Source: Polyangiaceae bacterium (GTDB lineage: Bacteria > Desulfobacterota > Binatia > UTPRO1). Taken from it: a stretch of 64,000 bases of DNA. Below the pieces are notes generated by a model. That model saw only the letters and a list, made by a program, of their open reading frames with translations, did not search any database and had not been told where the DNA came from. The DNA is taken from NCBI GenBank assembly GCA_031400185.1, contig JANNPN010000214.1:5205-69204 (forward strand), in the 5' to 3' direction. Below, piece after piece: positions 1-22,640 of this stretch; positions within the stretch are counted from its first letter, which is position 1, and each line of letters begins with the position of its first letter. Both the position numbers and the translations under genes were made by a program.

Positions 1-119
1 TTCCGTGTTTTCAGCGCCTGCTGCATCGGCGTGAACAGTAGGACACGCATCAGCTGCCAGAAGACGACGAAGCCAACGAGCTGAATGACGAATGTTATGT
101 CTGGGGGAAGCTTGATCAC
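1..119 (-). CDS. atpF: ATP synthase F0 subunit b, N-terminal fragment running off the window (GTG start at 119)
   Basis: Minus-strand translation ...VIKLPPDITFVIQLVGFVVFWQLMRVLLFTPMQQALKTR resembles the b-subunit N-terminal TM helix; in-frame stop upstream limits start to GTG at 117-119. Confidence 0.4.
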   Translation of the reverse strand, partial: MIKLPPDITFVIQLVGFVVFWQLMRVLLFTPMQQALKTR

Positions 120-214: not shown

Positions 215-775
215 TTATTTGGCGGCCTCGGATTGCACCTTCGCGGCAAGTCCGTCGGAAATCTTATCGTCCTTCGGGAACGGCGTGACCTTGCGGTCGA
301 CCTTCGCGGTCTCTGCGCCGCCCATCGAGCAATGCCCTTCGAAGATGACGCCTTCTTGTATGATCAAGCTCGGGGTCGTCACGTTGCCGAATAGCTTGCC
401 GGGAGCACGGATTTCTACGCGCTTGCGGGCCGTGATGTCGCCGGTCACGCGGCCCTTGATGATGACCGTGCTGCCCGTGATCTGCGCGTTGACGATCGCG
501 GGTTCACCGACGATCAACGTGTCTTGCGCGTTGATCTCGCCCTCGACCTGTCCGTCGACGCGAACCGTTCCCTCGAAGTTCAGCTTGCCGGTGACGCGAC
601 TTCCCTTGCCGAGATACGCGTTCACCTCGCCGGCGACGGCCGCGGGCACCGCTTCCTTGTCGAGTCCCTCGCGCTCTATGCGCGGCGGCTCGTCGATTGC
701 GGCCCGAATTTCCTGCGATTCGAAACGATCGCTGCGATCGTTGCGATCGCGATTCTCTTTGCCGAAGAGCGCCAT
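215..775 (-). CDS. bactofilin (DUF583 beta-helical cytoskeletal protein)
   Basis: MALFGK N-terminus at internal Met with AAGGAAG RBS 8 nt upstream; repetitive V/I-x-G beta-helix core (GEPAIVNAQITGSTVIIKGRVTGDITARKRVEIRAPGKLFGNVTTPSLIIQEGVIFEGHC) typical of bactofilins. Confidence 0.8.
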   Translation of the reverse strand: MALFGKENRDRNDRSDRFESQEIRAAIDEPPRIEREGLDKEAVPAAVAGEVNAYLGKGSRVTGKLNFEGTVRVDGQVEGEINAQDTLIVGEPAIVNAQITGSTVIIKGRVTGDITARKRVEIRAPGKLFGNVTTPSLIIQEGVIFEGHCSMGGAETAKVDRKVTPFPKDDKISDGLAAKVQSEAAK

Positions 776-897
776 AGAGGGCTTCCTTTCGACGGTCTGC
801 TCGCTGTGTTGCCGACCCAAAACCGCGTCGTCTTAGCACCCGTTTCCGGGCCTTGTCAAAAATGACCGCGGCGCGGGACGACGCCAGGATCAGCCGC

Positions 898-1782
898 TTA
901 CCAGTCGCGTTTCGCGATGCGTGCGACGATGCCGTCCAACTCCTCGCGCGAGTAGTATTCGATCTCGATGCGACCACCCTTGCCTTTGGGCGTGATGCGC
1001 ACGCGCGTACCAAGGGCCGTCGAGAGATCACGTTCCAGTGCCGCGCGGTGCGGATCGCGCGTTTGAGGCCGGGCCGCGGTGCCCTTCCGTGCTGCAGCGA
1101 GTTGCTCGGCATCTCGCACGGACATCTGCCGCGTTTGAATTTGCTTCGCCGCACGAATCTGCGCGTCCGCGTCGTCGATCGAAAGCAATACGCGCGCGTG
1201 CCCTGCGGTGAGGCGACCGCGCGCCAAGTCTTTCTTGATCGATTCCGGAAGCCGCAGCAGACGGAGGGCGTTGGCGACTGCCGGCCTGCTCTTCCCGACC
1301 CGCTCCGCGACTTGCTCCTGCGTGTGCCCGAACTCCTCGATGAGTCGCTGATAAGCGGCTGCCTCTTCGAGCGGGCTGAGATCGTCGCGCTGGATGTTCT
1401 CGACGAGCGCCAGCTCGAGGCTTTCGCCGTCGGTGATGTCGCGGACGAAGACGGGCACGTGGGTCAGACCGGCGCGTTCGGCCGCACGCAAGCGCCGTTC
1501 GCCGGCGACGAGCTCGTAGTCGCCCTCGGCGCTCCGGCGCACCAGAAGCGGCTGCAGAACGCCTTGCACGCGTATGGAGTTTACGAGCTCGGCGAGTGCT
1601 GCTTCGTCGAACTCGATGCGTGGCTGGCGTGGATTGGGCCGGATCTTGTCGATGGCGACCAGCAGATCGGGAGCCGCGGACTCGGACGCCGATGCCTCGC
1701 CCGGCGAGACGCGACCCGCGCCAGGGATCAAGGCGTCGAGGCCCCGGCCGAGCGCCTTGCGCATGCCCTTGTCACCCAACAA
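898..1782 (-). CDS. parB: chromosome partitioning protein ParB (Spo0J)
   Basis: ALGRGLDALIP N-term, ParB box GERRLRAAERAG, HTH, full length 294 aa; overlaps parA by 11 nt. Confidence 0.9.
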   Translation of the reverse strand: MLGDKGMRKALGRGLDALIPGAGRVSPGEASASESAAPDLLVAIDKIRPNPRQPRIEFDEAALAELVNSIRVQGVLQPLLVRRSAEGDYELVAGERRLRAAERAGLTHVPVFVRDITDGESLELALVENIQRDDLSPLEEAAAYQRLIEEFGHTQEQVAERVGKSRPAVANALRLLRLPESIKKDLARGRLTAGHARVLLSIDDADAQIRAAKQIQTRQMSVRDAEQLAAARKGTAARPQTRDPHRAALERDLSTALGTRVRITPKGKGGRIEIEYYSREELDGIVARIAKRDW

Positions 1783-2545
1783 CGTTATGAACCAGCTCTT
1801 CCGTCAAAGCGGCGTATGCCTTCGCGCCGCGTGAATTCGCATCGTACACCATCGCCGGGACACCGTAACTGGGGCATTCGCTCAACCTGACATTTCGAGG
1901 AATTACTGACTTGAAGACCTGGTCTGGGAAGTGTTGCCTCACCTCGTTCACGACTTGATGGGCCAGGCTGTTACGAGTATCAAACATTGTTAATAAAAGC
2001 CCCTCGATTCCGAGATTTGGATTCAGACCCTGGCGAATGAAGCCGATGGTGTCGAGGAGCGCGCTCAGTCCCTCCAGGGCGTAGTACTCGCACTGCAGCG
2101 GGATGAGCACGGCATCGGCCGCACAGAGGGCATTTACGGTCAGAAGTCCGAGCGACGGCGGACAATCGATGATGATGAAATCGTATTGCCGTCGGAGCGT
2201 GGTGATAGCCTCTTGCAGCCGGAACTCACGACGCGGCAGCGGCACCAATTCGATCTCAGCGCCGATGAGATCGCGGCTCGCCGGCATCAGCGAGAGGTTC
2301 TGAACCTGGGTCGGCCGAACGATCTGTTCGATCGCCTTCTCGCCGATCAGGGCATGGTAGACCGAGGCCTCGACCTCATGAGGATGGACGCCAAGGCCGC
2401 TCGTCGCGCTCGCCTGCGGGTCGAGATCGATCAAGAGCGTCGGCTGCCCCGCCAGGGCGAGCCCAGCGCTCAGATTGACCGATGTAGTTGTTTTTCCTAC
2501 TCCGCCCTTTTGATTGGCGACCGCTAGAACCCGTCCCACGAACAC
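1772..2545 (-). CDS. parA: chromosome partitioning ATPase ParA (Soj)
   Basis: Deviant Walker A VLAVANQKGGVGKTTT, 257 aa, upstream of parB. Confidence 0.9.
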   Translation of the reverse strand: MFVGRVLAVANQKGGVGKTTTSVNLSAGLALAGQPTLLIDLDPQASATSGLGVHPHEVEASVYHALIGEKAIEQIVRPTQVQNLSLMPASRDLIGAEIELVPLPRREFRLQEAITTLRRQYDFIIIDCPPSLGLLTVNALCAADAVLIPLQCEYYALEGLSALLDTIGFIRQGLNPNLGIEGLLLTMFDTRNSLAHQVVNEVRQHFPDQVFKSVIPRNVRLSECPSYGVPAMVYDANSRGAKAYAALTEELVHNVVG

Positions 2546-2636: not shown

Positions 2637-2652
2637 TGTTTCACGTGGAACA
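2637..2652. promoter_or_regulatory. parS-like site TGTTTCACGTGGAACA (1 mismatch to consensus), preceded by tandem CCAGTTGTT CCAGTTGTT
   Basis: Direct match to parS consensus TGTTNCACGTGAAACA except G at position 11; located 92 bp upstream of parA start. Confidence 0.6.
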
Positions 2653-3244
2653 TTTTGGGGATAACATGCCCGAAGCCTGACAACGGCGCGTCAGGTCGCC
2701 TTCCCGCCACCAGTTTTTGGACGCGTCGCCGTTTGCACAGCAGCACGGCTCCCGTTTCCCCATAGATGCGACAACGGTTGATCAGCGCCGCTACCGGCGT
2801 CGACGCTCGCGCGAGGTCTACCCCGGGTGGGCGACACCAACCTCATAGGACCGTTCAGCGACGCGGTCCCGAGAGACATATCGCAAGATCGTGATGCGAA
2901 TCTCACCTGAGGCGAAGCCCCATGGCATCCCAGGCCTCTGGGTTGTCGGGGTTTCTGGTTCAGATGCACCACTACTGGACAAGCGGTGACCGTAGAGAGA
3001 ATCCCGGGGGGACAAGGCAGCCGATTGGTTGGCCCTGCGGCACGAGCGATCGCCGCAGCGGATCGCAGCCCGCGTCAAGAAAGATCGGCTTCGCGGGCCA
3101 TGCTGCTCCTTGCCCAAGTTGCTCCGGCTCCCGTCAAGCTGTGACGATGAGAAGTCGCTTCCCACGACTGACCCGGAATGTCTTCAACGCGCTCCTCCCA
3201 GACTGAGCATGGGACATCCGCCCTCCACTGCAGCGCCCTTTGGA

Positions 3245-3260
3245 TGTTCCACGTGAAACA
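3245..3260. promoter_or_regulatory. parS site TGTTCCACGTGAAACA (perfect match to TGTTNCACGTGAAACA)
   Basis: 16-bp palindromic parS consensus immediately after the rsmG stop codon. Confidence 0.7.
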
Positions 3261-3905
3261 TCACCCTGGCATTGTCAGGACCTCGACGCAGCGAGGCCGA
3301 TAGTCACCGATCCGGTAGCGCAAAATCGTCTCGCGGACGTACGGGGGTGGCACCGCGTGCAACGGCTCCGAGCGCATCCAAAAGAGTCGGCCGTGGTCCG
3401 CGAGCCACTCCTGTGCAACGCCTCCAAGCGCATCATCCGACCAGGTCGCCCGCGACACGACGGCATCCGCCGTATGGGCGTACTCGGATGGCGGGGTCTC
3501 GGCTCGCTGCTCCAACACCCTGACGTTCGGCAGATCGAGCGTGCGGCGAACCTCGTGTAGGAACGATGCGCGACGCCTTCGCGCCTCGACGAGCACGAAC
3601 CTCTGGTCTGGGCGAAGAATCGCGAGCGGGATTCCGGGGAAGCCCGCGCCGGTTCCGAGGTCGACGATGCATCCACTCGGCAGCGCAGCCACGAGGGCGA
3701 GTGAATCGAGGAGGTGACGCTCGACGAGCTCTCCCGCGGAGCGACACGAAATCAGATTCATCTTTGGCGCCCAGACGTCCAGCACGTCCGCGAAGCGACC
3801 GAGGTTGGTCGCCGCCGAAGGACTGATCTCAATTCCGAGCGCCGCGGCGCCCGCGATCAGATGGTCTCGGTCAGCTTCTCGGAGTCGCAAGCTCGTCGAG
3901 CTCAC
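3261..3905 (-). CDS. rsmG: 16S rRNA (guanine527-N7)-methyltransferase RsmG (GidB)
   Basis: SAM-MTase motif [16 protein letters not shown]; conserved position downstream of mnmG; start may be later than 3905 (35-nt overlap with mnmG). Confidence 0.85.
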
Positions 3906-5706
3906 GGTCGGCTCGATGACGCTTCGACCAAACGGCGAGGATCGCGACGGCGGCCGGCGTCACGCCGGGGATGCGCGCGGCCTGACCGAGTGTCGCAGGC
4001 CTCACGCTCGCGAGCTTCTCGCGCACCTCGCGCGAGAGGGAATGCATGCGGTCGAAATCCAGGTCCGTGGGAAGGGCCTGCTCTTCGAGCCCTTTTAGGC
4101 GAACGATCTCTCGCTCCTGCCGCGCAATGTACCCCGCGTACTTGATCCGGCATTCGACCTCGCTCTGTACTTGTCTGCTGAGGTCCGGTCGAGTGGTCGG
4201 GCGGCGCGCGGCGAGGTCGGCGAGTGCCGTATCCGGTCGTCGGAGCTCGGCAGCAAGCCCCGAGCTCTCGAGGAACTCGACTTCCGACGTGATCTCCGCA
4301 AGGCGCCCCTGCACGCGCTCGAAGCGGTCGCGATCGATCAGCTTCGCCTCGAATGCGATGTCGGTGAGCCGCTCCTCGGCGTTGCCTTCACGGAGCACCA
4401 AGCGGTGTTCCGCGCGCGATGTGAACATCCGGTACGGTTCGCCGCCGATTCCACGAGTGACGAGATCATCGACCATCACGCCGAGGTACGCCTGGTCACG
4501 CCCGATCACGATCGGGGTCTCGCCGTGCGCCGAGCGGGCGGCGTTCAGACCGGCGAGGAGACCCTGTGCGGCTGCTTCCTCGTATCCCGTCGTGCCGTTG
4601 ATCTGGCCGGCATGGAACAGACCCTTCACGACCTTCGTTTCGAGCGATGCATGCAGCTGGATTGGATCGACGTAGTCGTACTCGATCGCGTATCCGGGCC
4701 GCATTATCTCCGCGTGCTCGAGGCCGGCAATCGACCGCACCATCCGCGTTTGGATGTCGAGCGGGAGGCTGGTGGAAAGGCCGTTCGGATAGATCTCGAC
4801 GGTCTCGAGACCCTCGGGCTCGAGAAAGATCTGATGCCGTTCCTTGTCCGCGAAGCGCACGACCTTGTCTTCGATCGACGGACAGTAACGCGGTCCTCGC
4901 GACGTGATGCTGCCAGAGAACATCGCCGATTCCGGGAGGCCCTCGCGCACGATGTCGTGCGTGGCGCTCGTCGTGTAGGCGATCCAGCAGGAGATCTGCT
5001 GTTGGAGGATGCCGGGTCCGTGCGCCGAGAAAGGTACGGGATCCTGATCTCCGGGCTGCTCGACGAGCGTGCCGAAATCGATCGATCGCCCATCCAGGCG
5101 AGGGCAGGTGCCGGTCTTGAGACGGCCGACGCGGAAGCCGAGCTCACCGAGATGCTGGCTCAGCCCCTGGATCGCGAGGTCGCCGGCACGACCCCCGGGA
5201 TAGCTCCGCTTGCCGACGTGAATCAGACCCTTCAGGAACGTTCCCGTCGTGAGCACGACGGTCTTTCCCGCGAAGAACTCGCCGAGCTCCGTCTCGACGC
5301 CGCTGACGTGGTCGCGGCTAGTTCGCAGGCGTTCGATGCTCGCCTGGCGAAGCGTCACCCTCGGCGCCGACTCCATCACGCGCTTCATGCGGGCGCGGTA
5401 CAGCGCCTTGTCGGCCTGAGCGCGCGTGGCTCTGACCGCGGGTCCCTTCTTGGTGTTGAGCGTCCGGAACTGGATGCCGGTCTCGTCGATCGCGCGTGCC
5501 ATCTCGCCGCCGAGCGCATCGATCTCCTTTACGAGGTGTCCTTTGCCGATCCCTCCTATTGCAGGATTGCAAGACATTTGCCCGATGTGGTCGAGGTTCT
5601 GAGTGAGTAAGAGAACGTCGGCGCCGGAACGTGCAGCCGCGAGAGCTGCCTCGATTCCCGCGTGGCCGGCGCCGACGACGATGACGTCGTAAATCGTCCC
5701 ACTCAT
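3871..5706 (-). CDS. mnmG: tRNA uridine 5-carboxymethylaminomethyl modification enzyme MnmG (GidA)
   Basis: [24 protein letters not shown] motif, 611 aa, full-length GidA-like. Confidence 0.95.
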
Positions 5707-5721
5707 GGTTCGACGCCGAAC

Positions 5722-7107
5722 CTATTTGCCGAGGCAGAAGTCGGCAAACACCCGGTCGAGGACGTCTTCGCTCGTAATCTCTCCCGTGATCCCTGCGAGC
5801 GCGACAGCAGCCGCCGCCAGGTCGCTCGCGATGAGCTCGAGCGGCGTCCCGACCCTGACCCCGTCCTCCGCACGTAGGAGATCCGCGATCGCCTTTCGTA
5901 GCGCATCGTGATGGCGCGCTCGGAATATCACGACCTCGTCGTCCCGCACGCACTCGACGAACCCGAAGAGTAGGTCGGCCAGTCGCATCGTCAGCTCCCT
6001 TAGGCCCGCGCCCGTGAGCGCGCTCACCTCGACGATGTATGCGCAATGCACGGTAGCGGCGACCGCTTCTCCATCGGCTGCCGGCGGTAGATCGGCCTTG
6101 TTGAGCACGGCGATCGTGGGTTTCTGCGCGACGGCTTCCGCGACGAGCGCATCGTCGGCCGTCAGCACCGAGCTTCGATCGAACACGATCACGACGCAGT
6201 CGGAATCGTCCACCGCCCGTCGGCTGCGTTCGACCCCCATCGCCTCGACGACGTCGGTCGCGTCACGGATTCCCGCCGTGTCCATCAGCACGACCGGCGC
6301 ACCGCGCACGACGATCGACGCTTCGACGACGTCGCGTGTGGTTCCGGGGATCGGCGTCACGATCGCGCGCTCCCTTCCGAGAAGCGCGTTCAGCAAACTC
6401 GACTTGCCCACGTTCGGCCGACCGACCAATGCAACGCGGGCACCTCGATATCGCAGCCGGCCCCGCTCGAAGGTCTCCGCCATCACTTCGAGCTCGCCCC
6501 GCACGCGCGCGAGCTGCTGCTCAAGCTCGCGCGCCGCGATCTCGGGCACGTCTTCGTCGGAAAAATCGAGCGACACCTCACAACGTGACCTTGCCTGGAT
6601 CACGCTCTCGCGGAGGCGCCCCACCTGCGCCGACAGTGAGCCCTGGAGCTGCGACCACGCCAATCGCCGGCCGGCCTCGCTCCGCGCTGCGATCAGGTCC
6701 GCGACGGCTTCGGCCTGTGCGAGATCCATGCGACCGTTCTCGAACGCGCGCTTCGTGAACTCTCCGGGCTCTGCGGGTCGCGCTCCCGCTGAACAGAGGC
6801 TTTCGAGAATTCGCTGGGTCACGAGCGTACCGCCGTGACACTGGACCTCTACGACGTCCTCACCGGTGTAGGTTCGGGGCGCGCGCATGCCGAACACCAG
6901 CACTTGGTCGATCGCCTCTTCGCCGTCTGCACCGAGGAGGTTTCCGACGTACACCCGACGCATTTCCGGGATTCCGCCGCCGCCACGCCGCCGGAAAAGA
7001 CGCGCGACGATCGCGTGGGACTCGTTGCCGCTCACGCGCACGACGGCGACGCCGCCGGCCCCCGGAGCCGTCGCTACCGCGACGATGGTATCCCGCGGGG
7101 AGGTCAC
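5722..7107 (-). CDS. mnmE: tRNA modification GTPase MnmE (TrmE)
   Basis: G-domain GRPNVGKSSLLNAL, C-terminal CLGK motif, 461 aa. Confidence 0.9.
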   Translation of the reverse strand: MTSPRDTIVAVATAPGAGGVAVVRVSGNESHAIVARLFRRRGGGGIPEMRRVYVGNLLGADGEEAIDQVLVFGMRAPRTYTGEDVVEVQCHGGTLVTQRILESLCSAGARPAEPGEFTKRAFENGRMDLAQAEAVADLIAARSEAGRRLAWSQLQGSLSAQVGRLRESVIQARSRCEVSLDFSDEDVPEIAARELEQQLARVRGELEVMAETFERGRLRYRGARVALVGRPNVGKSSLLNALLGRERAIVTPIPGTTRDVVEASIVVRGAPVVLMDTAGIRDATDVVEAMGVERSRRAVDDSDCVVIVFDRSSVLTADDALVAEAVAQKPTIAVLNKADLPPAADGEAVAATVHCAYIVEVSALTGAGLRELTMRLADLLFGFVECVRDDEVVIFRARHHDALRKAIADLLRAEDGVRVGTPLELIASDLAAAAVALAGITGEITSEDVLDRVFADFCLGK

Positions 7108-19909: not shown

Positions 19910-20143
19910 GTGCCTAGGACCGGCGATCCAGGCAACGAATCCGCCTTCTTTCGCTATGCCAAGTATTCGGCGGTCGCGTTTGAGTTCATCGGGTCCATAC
20001 TGGCTGGAGTTTTCGTCGGCAGTGCGCTAGACGGCTGGCTCCGAACCGAGCCGTGGCTGGTCCTCACCATGACGATCGCTGGCACCGTGATCGGATTCTA
20101 CCGCATGATCCAGATTCTTCAGCGCCTGCAACGCAACCAATGA
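19910..20143 (+). CDS. AtpZ/AtpR-like small membrane protein preceding ATP synthase genes
   Basis: 77 aa, two TM helices, immediately upstream of atpI-atpB-atpE, GTG start. Confidence 0.5.
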   Translation: MPRTGDPGNESAFFRYAKYSAVAFEFIGSILAGVFVGSALDGWLRTEPWLVLTMTIAGTVIGFYRMIQILQRLQRNQ

Positions 20144-20511
20144 ACGTTCGCCTGAATCGCATCCAGGGTCTGGTGTTGTCGATCACGACCATAGTGGCCG
20201 TGATCGCCCTGACCGTCGGGTTCACCACCCCGTTCGGCATCGTCCTCGGTGGCATGGCAGCCTGGCTCGATTTCGTCGTGATTCGAGGGCTCGTAGCCGC
20301 GATGCTGGCGCGCAAGCCCGCTAAGGAACACATTGTGCCGATGGCGCTTGCCAAGTCACTGGTGCTGGTCACCGTTCCTGCCGTCGCGTTACTTCTGCCT
20401 GGATCGCTGGTGAGCGGCGTCTCGTTCGCGATCGGCGTCACCGCGTTGCCGGCGGCCATCGTGATCGACGCGTGTCTCGCGGTACCTCAGAGCGAAGTAG
20501 GAGAAGCGTAG
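20140..20511 (+). CDS. atpI: ATP synthase protein I (AtpI-like)
   Basis: 123 aa from MNVRLNRIQG, four hydrophobic helices, ATGA overlap with upstream ORF, directly precedes atpB. Confidence 0.55.
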   Translation: MNVRLNRIQGLVLSITTIVAVIALTVGFTTPFGIVLGGMAAWLDFVVIRGLVAAMLARKPAKEHIVPMALAKSLVLVTVPAVALLLPGSLVSGVSFAIGVTALPAAIVIDACLAVPQSEVGEA

Positions 20512-21204
20512 ATGGAGCACGGGTTTTCCTGGGTCCAGCAGATTCCGGGGTTGATGGCGCTCGAGCCGCACACGGCGACAGCGCTCTTGGTCATGGTCGG
20601 CCTCTTGTTGTTCGCGCTACGGGCGCGGCAGCAACTCGCCGCGACGGCCGACGTCACGGTTCCCGACGAGGGGTTCTCGGCGCGAAACGTCGGTGAGGTG
20701 ATCACGGAGTTCATCACGAACCTCTCCGAGAGCGTCATCGGGCATGACGGTCCGAAGTACGTCCCGCTCTTCGCGAGCTTTTTCGTCTTCATTCTCGCAT
20801 CGAACCTGATCGGTTTGATCCCGGGATTCACGCCGCCGACCGACAACTTCAACGTGACGCTCGCGCTCGGGGTCGTGTCGTTCGTCGCGTACAACTTCTA
20901 TGGCCTGCAGGCGCACGGGTTGGCGTACCTGAAGCAATTCATGGGTCCCCTGCTGCTCCTCGCGCCCCTCATGATCGTCGTCGAGCTGTTCAGCCATTTG
21001 TTCAGGCCCGCGTCTCTGGCGATTCGGCTCTACGGCAACATGTTCGCCGATCACCTGCTGCTCGGGATCTTCACCGATCTCACGAAGGTGCTGATTCCCG
21101 TGATTTTCTATTTGCTCGGTACCTTCGTCTCGCTGGTGCAGGCGCTCGTGTTCACCTTGCTCACCATGGTGTACGTCGGGCTCGCCATCAGCCACGACCA
21201 CTAG
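20512..21204 (+). CDS. atpB: ATP synthase F0 subunit a
   Basis: 230 aa; conserved LAIRLYGNMFADHLLL (essential Arg) and C-terminal helices; AGGAG RBS. Confidence 0.9.
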   Translation: MEHGFSWVQQIPGLMALEPHTATALLVMVGLLLFALRARQQLAATADVTVPDEGFSARNVGEVITEFITNLSESVIGHDGPKYVPLFASFFVFILASNLIGLIPGFTPPTDNFNVTLALGVVSFVAYNFYGLQAHGLAYLKQFMGPLLLLAPLMIVVELFSHLFRPASLAIRLYGNMFADHLLLGIFTDLTKVLIPVIFYLLGTFVSLVQALVFTLLTMVYVGLAISHDH

Positions 21205-21303
21205 GCATTCCCGCTTCATCCGGTTCGCACGGCGCCGCAGGTGGAAGAGGAAAGAGAAGGTGCGGGCGGCAGAATGCGGATCTTAACTAGGAGGGCTGTG
21301 CAT

Positions 21304-21621
21304 ATGTCGAGAATCGTGTGGTTCTTTCTTGCCGTCATCGGTTTCATGAGCATCGCGACCCCGAGCTTCGCCCAGGACGGCGGTGCCGACGCGGGGGGCT
21401 TGATCGCCCTCGGCGCGGGCCTCGGGATCGGGATCGCGGCGCTCGGCGTCGGTCTCGGTCAGGGTCGTGCGACCGCCGCCGCGATGGAAAGCATCGGCCG
21501 GAACCCGAACTCTGCCGACCGCATCTTCGTGCCGATGATCATCGGCCTGGCGCTCATGGAAGCACTCTGTCTCTACGCGCTGGTGATCGCGTTCTTCCTG
21601 CAGGGCAAGATCCCGGGCTGA
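21304..21621 (+). CDS. atpE: ATP synthase F0 subunit c with signal-peptide-like N-terminal extension
   Basis: 105 aa; TAGGAGGG RBS; helix-1 [16 protein letters not shown], helix-2 carboxylate in [13 protein letters not shown]; N-term [25 protein letters not shown] looks like a cleavable signal. Confidence 0.85.
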
Positions 21622-21818: not shown

Positions 21819-22640
21819 GTGGAAGCAGTTTCTGGAGCAGCAAGAGGTGTAGCGTTCGCGGCGGGTCAGTTCATGAGCGGCCAGCGCATCTTGTTGGCCG
21901 CGATCCCGATCGAGCAGCTCCACCCCAATCCTCAACAACCGCGGAGATTCATCGACCCCGCCGGTCTCGATGAGCTCACTGAGTCCGTGCGTCAGCGCGG
22001 AGTGCTGCAGCCGATCATCGTCAAGCACGAGGGTGACGGCTATTTGATCATGGCCGGTGAGCGCCGCTACCGTGCGGCCAAAGCCGCCGGTCTGACGGTT
22101 ATGCCGGCGATCGTCCGCGACGACGATCCGAACGAGATCGCGCTGATCGAGAACCTTCAGCGCGAGGATTTGACGGCGCTCGAAGAAGCCGAAGGCCTCG
22201 GAGCGATGGTTGCCCGCTACGGCTACACGCACCAAGCCCTCGCGCAACTGCTCCACAAGAGCCGCCCATACGTTTCGAACACGCTCGTTCTGACGCGTCT
22301 TCCGGCCGAGGTGAAAGCCGAGCTGCACCGCTACCCGTCGATTTCGCGCGAGATCCTGATGACCATCGCTCGTCAGGAATCGGAAATCGAGATGCTGAAG
22401 CTCTGGCGGCGCGTCAAGCTCGCCAACATCTCCGTCCACAAGTTTCGCGAATCCCGGCGCACGGAGACCGGGGCCGAGCGTGCTCGCGAGGTGATGGCGG
22501 CCGCGCGTCGGGTGAACCGCAAGCTCCGGGATTTCGAAGCGACCGACCTGAGCGAGACGGAGCGACAGAAACTGGTTCGGGTGTTGCGCCGCACGCGCAA
22601 GCGCGTCGATCACATGCTTACCGCGATAGGTTCGTCCTGA
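21819..22640 (+). CDS. orphan ParB-like partition/DNA-binding protein paralog (start possibly internal Met ~21876)
   Basis: ParB N-domain with GERRYRAAKAAG and IENLQREDL boxes plus HTH; no adjacent parA. Confidence 0.75.
   Translation: MEAVSGAARGVAFAAGQFMSGQRILLAAIPIEQLHPNPQQPRRFIDPAGLDELTESVRQRGVLQPIIVKHEGDGYLIMAGERRYRAAKAAGLTVMPAIVRDDDPNEIALIENLQREDLTALEEAEGLGAMVARYGYTHQALAQLLHKSRPYVSNTLVLTRLPAEVKAELHRYPSISREILMTIARQESEIEMLKLWRRVKLANISVHKFRESRRTETGAERAREVMAAARRVNRKLRDFEATDLSETERQKLVRVLRRTRKRVDHMLTAIGSS

Follow-up and report, generated by a model that had tools for sequence, protein, structure and literature searches.

The gene lying directly behind parB in the 64 kb stretch of DNA analysed here (the window) encodes a genuine bactofilin, a small filament-forming cytoskeletal protein, and on balance this is probably a BacM-type bactofilin of the uncultured Binatia with a role in the cell envelope or cell shape rather than in the anchoring of ParABS, expressed from a promoter of its own on a transcript that would extend into the atp genes. 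The coding sequence occupies positions 215..775 of the (-) strand, as established from the list of open reading frames coupled with a match to the Pfam family PF04519, and specifies 186 amino acids from an ATG start at 775 (MALFGKENRDR...). This start is preceded, at a distance of 6 nt, by the ribosome-binding site GAAAGGAAG (782..790 of the (-) strand), which was read off the sequence. The first-pass annotation of this DNA had described a single bactofilin with a MALFGK start and a strong ribosome-binding site, on the same strand as parB and after it, and all of these features were recovered; its assignment to the bactofilin (DUF583) family was borne out by a strong profile match (E 1.6e-28, 99.3 bits against a cut-off of 27.9) spanning residues 54-149 of the protein and positions 2-97 of the 98 in the profile. 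An HMM search across all ORFs of at least 50 aa detected this one bactofilin in the window. The start codon and ribosome-binding site are kept in relatives, the motif GAAAGGA[AT]G being invariant in an alignment with two of them and present in many more loci. A longer start at TTG 820 was rejected, as the homologues begin with MALFG and the bases concerned are occupied by the conserved ribosome-binding site and promoter.

The protein is made up of the MALFGK N-terminus, a variable disordered linker (residues ~7-50), a beta-helical core (~50-155) and a tail of 33 aa, and alignment with relatives established that both termini are kept, the N-terminus as M[AG]LFG[KR][DE] and the tail with a conserved RKVTPFPKDDK...SEAAK. 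The AlphaFold2 model of the bactofilin presents a beta-helix at residues ~50-155 with pLDDT above 90, while both tails are below 50. When compared using Foldseek, this model matched the Thermus bactofilin TtBac (6RIB) with a TM score of 0.92 and an rmsd of 1.3 Å, and Caulobacter BacA (2N3D) with a TM score of 0.85. F145 aligns with the end-interface phenylalanine that is mutated (F105R) in the non-polymerising Thermus structure 6RIA, and is invariant across 20 relatives and nearly so across 46. The beta-helical fold, the end-interface phenylalanine and a short N-terminal hydrophobic-basic peptide are features shared with TtBac (6RIA/6RIB) and BacA, whereas identity to these two solved bactofilins is only 28-29% and their genomic context is different. 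We infer that the protein polymerises without nucleotide into filaments, which the MALFGK peptide probably tethers to the cytoplasmic membrane and which, held there, would scaffold client proteins. The globally defined membrane-targeting consensus of bactofilins, established by experiment, is MFSKKKK (PMC12448750), from which MALFGK deviates because acidic residues come after it: MALFGKENRDR offers a hydrophobic pair and a lysine and then turns acidic, and the membrane-targeting peptides of TtBac and BacA fit the consensus better than MALFGKE does.

In Myxococcus xanthus it is bacM that directly follows parAB, with which it shares a transcript, while bacNOP and padC constitute a separate operon (PMC5703909, PMC3899335). 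The first-pass annotation had placed bacNOP directly downstream of parAB in that organism and, from the same linkage in the window, had proposed a bactofilin-anchored partition complex. Its gene identities, the parAB linkage and the absence of padC stood, while the functional inference rested on a mistaken premise. Deletion of bacM leaves the localisation of both ParA and ParB unchanged, and BacM has been assigned to cell-shape maintenance (PMC5703909); as the parAB-linked bactofilin is BacM, and as this analogue is dispensable for ParA/ParB localisation, the analogy argues against an anchored partition complex rather than for it.

The similarity of the window protein to BacM is evident at several levels. 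Over the core, it shares 52% identity (E 3e-36) with P0376, a protein named 'bactofilin BacM' by NCBI, in a comparison that took in BacM, TtBac and BacA. BacM-family proteins begin with MALFG or MALLGK, as does the window bactofilin; the sequence features of BacM were inferred from mutagenesis primers (PMC4372379) and confirmed on the NCBI-named BacM, while N-terminal proteolytic processing of BacM is known from experiments in M. xanthus (cited in PMC5703909). In common with BacM (MXAN_7475) and its Myxococcota orthologues, the window gene directly follows parA-parB, in the same orientation and as part of a gidA-gidB-parA-parB block, and its product combines a single bactofilin domain with short tails; three Myxococcota BacM genes likewise sit in the order gidB-parA-parB-bacM. 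A search of NCBIfam gave no match for the window bactofilin or for the BacM proteins, and so offered no curated BacM model for either. By core identity, N-terminal motif and gene context the window protein resembles BacM, within a comparison made with BacM, TtBac and BacA. The two are nonetheless distinguishable: the N-terminal linker is ~50 aa in the window bactofilin and ~30 aa in BacM, the tail motif RKVTPFPK[DE][DE][KR] is found in the former and not in the latter, and the next gene is atpF' in the window but an MXAN_7474-like gene after BacM. Furthermore, the gap between parB and bacM is short in Myxococcota (about 3 to 54 nt), with an operon documented for M. xanthus, whereas the window has a gap of 122 nt that holds a conserved promoter; the median among relatives is 94 nt. 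As a counterpart of M. xanthus BacM by position and sequence, the window bactofilin would most likely contribute to the organisation of the cell envelope or cell shape. The BacM phenotype derives from one species which has three further bactofilins and PadC, and a lineage with fewer could differ in the use it makes of its bactofilin.

The genes upstream of the bactofilin form a chromosomal ParABS system, comprising a ParA ATPase, a three-domain ParB and consensus parS sites beside an origin-proximal block. The parB gene (898..1782, (-) strand) is the longest ORF from TTG 1782, its probable start being ATG 1764 (MRKALGRGLDAL...), and its product contains the Pfam domains ParB_N, HTH_ParB and ParB_C. 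The parA/soj gene (1772..2545, (-) strand) starts at GTG 2545 or, likelier, at GTG 2539, which has GGAGG in front of it, and its product matches AAA_31 (1.2e-65), CbiA and ParA in Pfam. Upstream of parA are two perfect matches to the parS consensus TGTTCCACGTGAAACA, where 0.03 would be expected by chance: the first (2637..2652) is kept upstream of parA in relatives, and the second (3245..3260) abuts the stop codon of rsmG/gidB. Pfam further identified rsmG/gidB (3261-3905), mnmG/gidA (3871-5706) and mnmE (5722-7107), all on the (-) strand, and, beyond mnmE, yidC, rnpA, gyrA and gyrB; gyrB-gyrA-rnpA-yidC-mnmE-gidA-gidB is a classic origin-proximal housekeeping block. Scanning the entire window against Rfam returned no matches. 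On the other side of the bactofilin, the window reaches 214 nt past the stop codon, and these bases carry the 5′ end of atpF′ (F-ATPase subunit b′; 1..119, (-) strand, by translation), which starts at GTG 119, 95 nt 3′ of the bactofilin stop codon, and is cut by the window edge. Its identity is based on the homologue annotated ATP-synt_B in relatives, with which tblastn agrees. Because the window ends so soon after the bactofilin, the absence of an adjacent padC had to be judged with care; the downstream gene is atpF′, and it is the same gene that follows the bactofilin in relatives, so that this earlier observation holds.

The linkage to parAB proved to be conserved, as parB immediately precedes the bactofilin gene in 62 of 69 related species loci, so that the synteny check proposed in the first-pass annotation does not refute it, and in 58 of the 69 the bactofilin has parB on one side and atpF′FHA downstream on the other. 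The related loci were gathered with the narrow alignment A2, and the sample is consequently biased towards Binatia, while statements on the parB-bactofilin order across phyla rest on few loci combined with the literature. Two loci labelled Acidobacteriota (L070 and L071) also display the adjacency, and in Bdellovibrio bacteriovorus an rRNA methyltransferase gene (gidB), parA (bd3906), parB (bd3905) and a bactofilin homologue, bd3904, come in the same order (PMC10547168); here the likeness is one of gene order, and that paper gives bd3904 no function. A bactofilin behind parAB is an ordinary conserved arrangement and not evidence of a filament-anchored partition machine. The place of the Binatia gene would reflect an old, conserved origin-proximal gene order, observed here in Binatia and some Acidobacteriota and reported for Myxococcota and Bdellovibrio.

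The same synteny can be read in favour of a scaffold at the membrane or cell pole which anchors ParB-parS or ParA, either directly or via an adaptor whose gene lies at another locus, in what would be a pared-down BacNOP-PadC system, and we consider this unlikely. Bactofilins can indeed organise ParABS, as is the case for BacNOP, three co-polymerising paralogues that act together with PadC (PMC5703909), and the M. xanthus system shares with the window the bactofilin family and a genome with canonical ParABS. An adjacency to parB which is kept in most related loci, recurs in the two Acidobacteriota-labelled loci and is known from Myxococcus and Bdellovibrio (PMC5703909, PMC10547168) could mirror a functional tie across several phyla, and the conserved short C-terminal motif could be a putative client-binding site. 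However, gidA, gidB, mnmE and yidC likewise adjoin parAB without a known functional link, and the precedent itself was mistaken, the parAB-linked paralogue of M. xanthus being BacM, whose deletion leaves ParA and ParB in place. In M. xanthus the three paralogues are encoded with padC in a separate operon away from parAB, whereas the 64 kb of the window contain a single bactofilin gene, with atpF′ instead of padC downstream. In addition, the long C-terminal tail of the BacP type binds PadC through a KKKVVVKK motif (PMC12448750), and both this motif and such a tail are absent from the window bactofilin, the tail of which is the short one described above; the bactofilin moreover has its own conserved promoter.

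A second ParB-like gene 21 kb away could speak for an adaptor. This gene, ParB2 (21819-22640), is the only other ParB-like ORF in the window; it follows atpE, and its product carries ParB_N and HTH_ParB from the N-terminus, unlike the architecture of PadC, which consists of a long disordered N-terminus and a C-terminal ParB/Srx-like domain. ParB2 was for this reason rejected as a PadC-like adaptor. A related interpretation, which appears distinctly unlikely, takes the MALFG-type bactofilin after parB to be an ancient origin-proximal module of Myxococcota, Bdellovibrionota, Binatota and some Acidobacteriota that, in lineages without BacNOP-PadC, would tether the origin/ParB or ParA to the membrane directly via its C-terminal motif, the phenotype of Myxococcus BacM being derived and masked by paralogue redundancy. 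In a variant of this interpretation the bactofilin would couple the partition and ATP synthase loci by organising the F-ATPase in the membrane.

The separation of the bactofilin from parAB is further suggested by its upstream region. The gap behind parB contains a promoter-like element of the sigma-70 type (830..859, (-) strand), with a -35 hexamer TTGACA (859-854) separated by 18 nt, the last two of them TG, from a -10 hexamer TAAGAC (835-830), and this TTGACA/TG-TAAGAC element is kept in the alignment of the parB-bactofilin gap with relatives. Of 42 loci, 31 carry TTGACA in the 130 nt preceding the bactofilin start, a frequency to be set against 1.7% among background windows; treated as a simple binomial, this amounts to 5e-46, a value which overstates the significance because related loci were counted as independent. 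The mean promoter score was 9.0 out of 12 upstream of the bactofilin, while random windows gave 6.5 and the gap between the bactofilin and atpF′ gave 6.6, and promoter scoring detected no promoter in the 95-nt gap before atpF′. A strict promoter scan did not call the 830..859 element because its -10 rule demands a T at position 6, which TAAGAC lacks. Just 3′ of the parB stop codon there is a weak terminator-like hairpin (869..886, (-) strand), the T-run of which overlaps the -35 region; with four terminator-like sites in the region as compared to 3.0 expected, this hairpin is suggestive only, and the folding energy of the two gaps flanking the bactofilin was no different from that of shuffled sequences (z -1.1 and -0.2). 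As the bactofilin gene has its own conserved promoter, its same-strand place after parB does not imply a parAB operon. The pattern indicates that the Binatia bactofilin is probably transcribed apart from parAB, to which read-through from parAB may add, and that a strong sigma-70-type promoter of its own, situated between parB and the bactofilin, would direct its expression. In the Binatia lineage the atp genes may be transcribed along with it, the bactofilin probably heading a transcript that would run on into atpF′-atpF-atpH-atpA-atpG-atpD-atpC.

Such a transcript raises the question of a functional tie to ATP synthase, whereby the bactofilin, as the promoter-proximal gene of an atpF′FHAGDC unit, would be co-produced with the stator and F1 subunits and help to position the enzyme in the membrane or to assemble it there, a proposal that we regard as very improbable. 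It could account for the position of the bactofilin between parB and atpF′ in the majority of the loci, for the strong conserved promoter before the bactofilin where none is detectable before atpF′, and for three loci (L037, L059 and L065) that keep the bactofilin-atp linkage without ParB upstream, of which L059 covers only 1.3 kb of upstream sequence. Nevertheless, the parB-linked bactofilins of Myxococcota and of the Acidobacteriota-labelled loci have no atp genes after them, and housekeeping genes that share transcription need not share function. GC-rich hairpins 3′ of the bactofilin stop codon in several loci could terminate the transcript, their stability being not above that of shuffled sequences (the z of -0.2 given above), and a direct contact between bactofilin and ATP synthase was not found in the literature searched.

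These results correct an attractive but mistaken analogy, as a bactofilin beside parAB represents the BacM arrangement, which lies outside the partition machinery of Myxococcus. The arrangement of parAB and a bactofilin was already known, having been described in Myxococcus and being visible in Bdellovibrio; what is new is its extension, with hardly any exceptions, to Binatia, an uncultured class in which the bactofilin has a consensus-like promoter of its own and is placed directly before the F1/stator ATP synthase genes. The conserved C-terminal peptide of this Binatia bactofilin subfamily is likewise new, and if it bound a component of the partition or ATP synthase machinery, this would provide a simple model for how a scaffold is used in bacteria with a single bactofilin.

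The bactofilin gene (215-775) at the left end of the window is on the minus strand, as are all its neighbours with the exception of padR. It is preceded by parA (1772-2545), encoding a typical Soj/ParA ATPase, and by parB (898-1782, probable ATG at 1764), the product of which contains all three ParB domains, and it is followed by the first 119 bases of the ATP synthase b' gene atpF' at the window's left edge. Further upstream are rsmG/gidB (3261-3905), mnmG/gidA (3871-5706) and mnmE (5722-7107), and beyond mnmE are yidC, rnpA, gyrA and gyrB, with padR on the opposite strand between gyrA and rnpA. Two perfect parS sites, where 0.03 would be expected by chance, are located between gidB and parA. 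In five close relatives roughly 40 nt separate the corresponding sites; in the window a 592-bp segment (2653-3244, 62.5% GC) lies between them. This segment has neither a second copy within the window nor a counterpart among the related loci compared, gives no convincing ORF and no Rfam match, and may represent an insertion in the centromere region.

The first-pass annotation had placed a bactofilin gene after parA-parB on the same strand, and this was borne out by a strong match to Pfam PF04519/DUF583 (E 1.6e-28, 99.3 bits against a cut-off of 27.9) and by an AlphaFold2 model based on 20 homologous proteins, with a confident beta-helix at residues ~50-155 and disordered tails. It can be superposed on the filament structure of the Thermus bactofilin (6RIB; TM 0.92, rmsd 1.3 A) and likewise on Caulobacter BacA (2N3D). 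The protein starts at the ATG at 775 (MALFGK...), with GAAAGGAAG 6 nt upstream, and both are kept in relatives. The otherwise disordered C-terminal tail (215-313, residues ~155-186) carries the motif [DE]RKV[TA]xFPK[DE][DE][KR] with a terminal SE..K, which is retained even in more distant relatives, to ~45% identity; this peptide may bind client proteins.

The arrangement had been likened to the BacNOP-PadC system of Myxococcus xanthus, on the premise that bacNOP lies directly downstream of parAB; this premise is wrong (Lin et al.), and every testable defining feature of BacNOP-PadC is missing in the window. The M. xanthus gene next to parAB is bacM, whereas bacNOP and padC make up an operon of their own (PMC5703909, PMC3899335); loss of bacM left the localisation of ParA and ParB unaltered, and BacM is assigned to the maintenance of cell shape (PMC5703909). 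The protein instead resembles BacM. An exhaustive search of cluster representatives yielded the database protein P0264, which fits the BacM peptides HTLLGKG and D[RK]GVIFEGS.KMENL deduced from published mutagenesis primers (PMC4372379), and a search with P0264 retrieved Myxococcaceae proteins including P0376, named 'bactofilin BacM' by NCBI. P0376 and two other Myxococcota members have the order gidB-...-parA-parB-bacM, and the window bactofilin is 52% identical to P0376 across a 104-residue core (E 3e-36), as against 28-29% to solved bactofilins. It also shares, as MALFGK, the MALFG.../MALLGK... N-terminus of the BacM family. The two differ in the linker before the core (~50 aa in the window, ~30 aa in BacM), in the C-terminal motif (here [DE]RKVTPFPK[DE][DE][KR]...SE..K), which is absent from Myxococcota BacM, in the gene downstream of the bactofilin, and in the parB-bactofilin gap, which is 122 nt in the window and about 3 to 54 nt in three Myxococcota loci. 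We infer its assignment to BacM at the level of paralogues from context, N-terminus and identity, rather than from a tree, the sequence comparison covering BacM and the solved bactofilins. That the bactofilin anchors ParABS, as initially proposed, appears unlikely given the missing BacNOP-PadC features; it retains some plausibility, since the Myxococcus species behind the bacM result also carries three other bactofilins and PadC, and since no partner of the tail motif is known.

Linkage to parAB, the lack of which in relatives would have counted against the first-pass annotation, is conserved. The nearest homologues, 88-91% identical, derive from MAGs under the labels Candidatus Binatia/Binatota, 'uncultured delta proteobacterium' or 'Polyangiaceae bacterium UTPRO1', which assigns the window to an uncultured bacterium of the Binatia. 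Three of three relatives (88, 64 and 58% identity) share the order mnmE-gidA-gidB-parA-parB-bactofilin-atpF'-atpF-atpH-atpA-atpG-atpD-atpC. In a genome scan of 69 loci, one genome per species, with neighbours identified by tblastn using the window's proteins, 62 loci had ParB immediately upstream in the same orientation (62/67 among those with 1.5 kb or more of upstream sequence), and 58 of the 69 also had atp genes downstream. Four loci had parB-bactofilin without atp, two of them labelled Acidobacteriota or Thermoanaerobaculia and one a Guaymas 'Deltaproteobacteria' MAG, while three had bactofilin-atp without ParB upstream, one of these (L059) with just 1.3 kb of upstream sequence. In one related locus (L047:4825-6414) the ParB frame, with a garbled C-terminus, continues into that of the bactofilin with no intervening stop codon, and in another (L001:4223-5607) mnmE is broken into two ORFs; both are long-read MAG assemblies, and the anomalies appear to be indel errors, not real features.

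The parB-bactofilin gap (median 94 nt in relatives) contains a promoter-like element at 859-830, in which TTGACA is separated from TAAGAC by an 18-nt spacer with TG at its end; the element lines up across relatives. TTGACA occurs within 130 nt upstream of the bactofilin start at 31 of 42 loci, compared with 1.7% of same-strand background windows (simple binomial P 5e-46, overstated as related loci were counted as independent); in most cases TATAAG, TACGAG or TAAGAC, extended by TG, comes 17-18 nt after it. A simple promoter score averaged 9.0/12 in the region before the bactofilin, against 6.6 over the 120 nt past its stop codon and 6.5 for random windows. A weak hairpin and T-run lie directly 3' of the parB stop; hairpins past the bactofilin stop have no T-tracts and do not exceed shuffled sequences in stability. 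On the most economical reading of these signals, the Binatia bactofilin comes first after the promoter, in a unit that may extend into the atp genes. Promoter and adjacency also suggest a functional tie to ATP synthase, and in Helicobacter pylori the protein Csd5 binds ATP synthase as well as the bactofilin CcmA; such a tie is nevertheless quite improbable, as orthologues in other phyla have no atp genes after them.

The F-ATPase gene set is split, each half abutting a ParB homologue. Directly 3' of an atpI-like ORF, atpB and atpE (20053-21621) is a second ParB gene (21819-22640, plus strand), its 273-aa product having ParB_N and HTH_ParB domains but no ParB_C, a retained GERRYRAA motif and 46% identity to the chromosomal ParB. 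The order hemL-atpI-atpB-atpE-parB2 is present in all related metagenome contigs (71-92% identity) with enough upstream sequence. The hydrophobic 152-aa ORF before atpB (20053-20511, plus strand), in the atpI/atpZ position, has no Pfam match at E 0.01 or better and is kept by relatives at 44-69% identity.

On balance, we lean towards a membrane-associated scaffold of the BacM type, with a probable role in cell envelope or cell shape, whose position after parAB would have been inherited as origin-proximal synteny; the parAB block also retains gidA, gidB, mnmE and yidC, which have no known functional tie to parAB. A bactofilin after parAB has been described before in Myxococcus, and Bdellovibrio bacteriovorus shows the same order (bd3908 methyltransferase, bd3907, parA, parB, bd3904 bactofilin; PMC10547168), and the window is therefore a further member of a known arrangement, in an uncultured class. 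What is new, albeit modest, is the near-universality of the parAB-bactofilin arrangement in Binatia, the bactofilin's own conserved promoter-like element ahead of the atp genes for F1 and the stator, and the tail motif conserved in the bactofilin.
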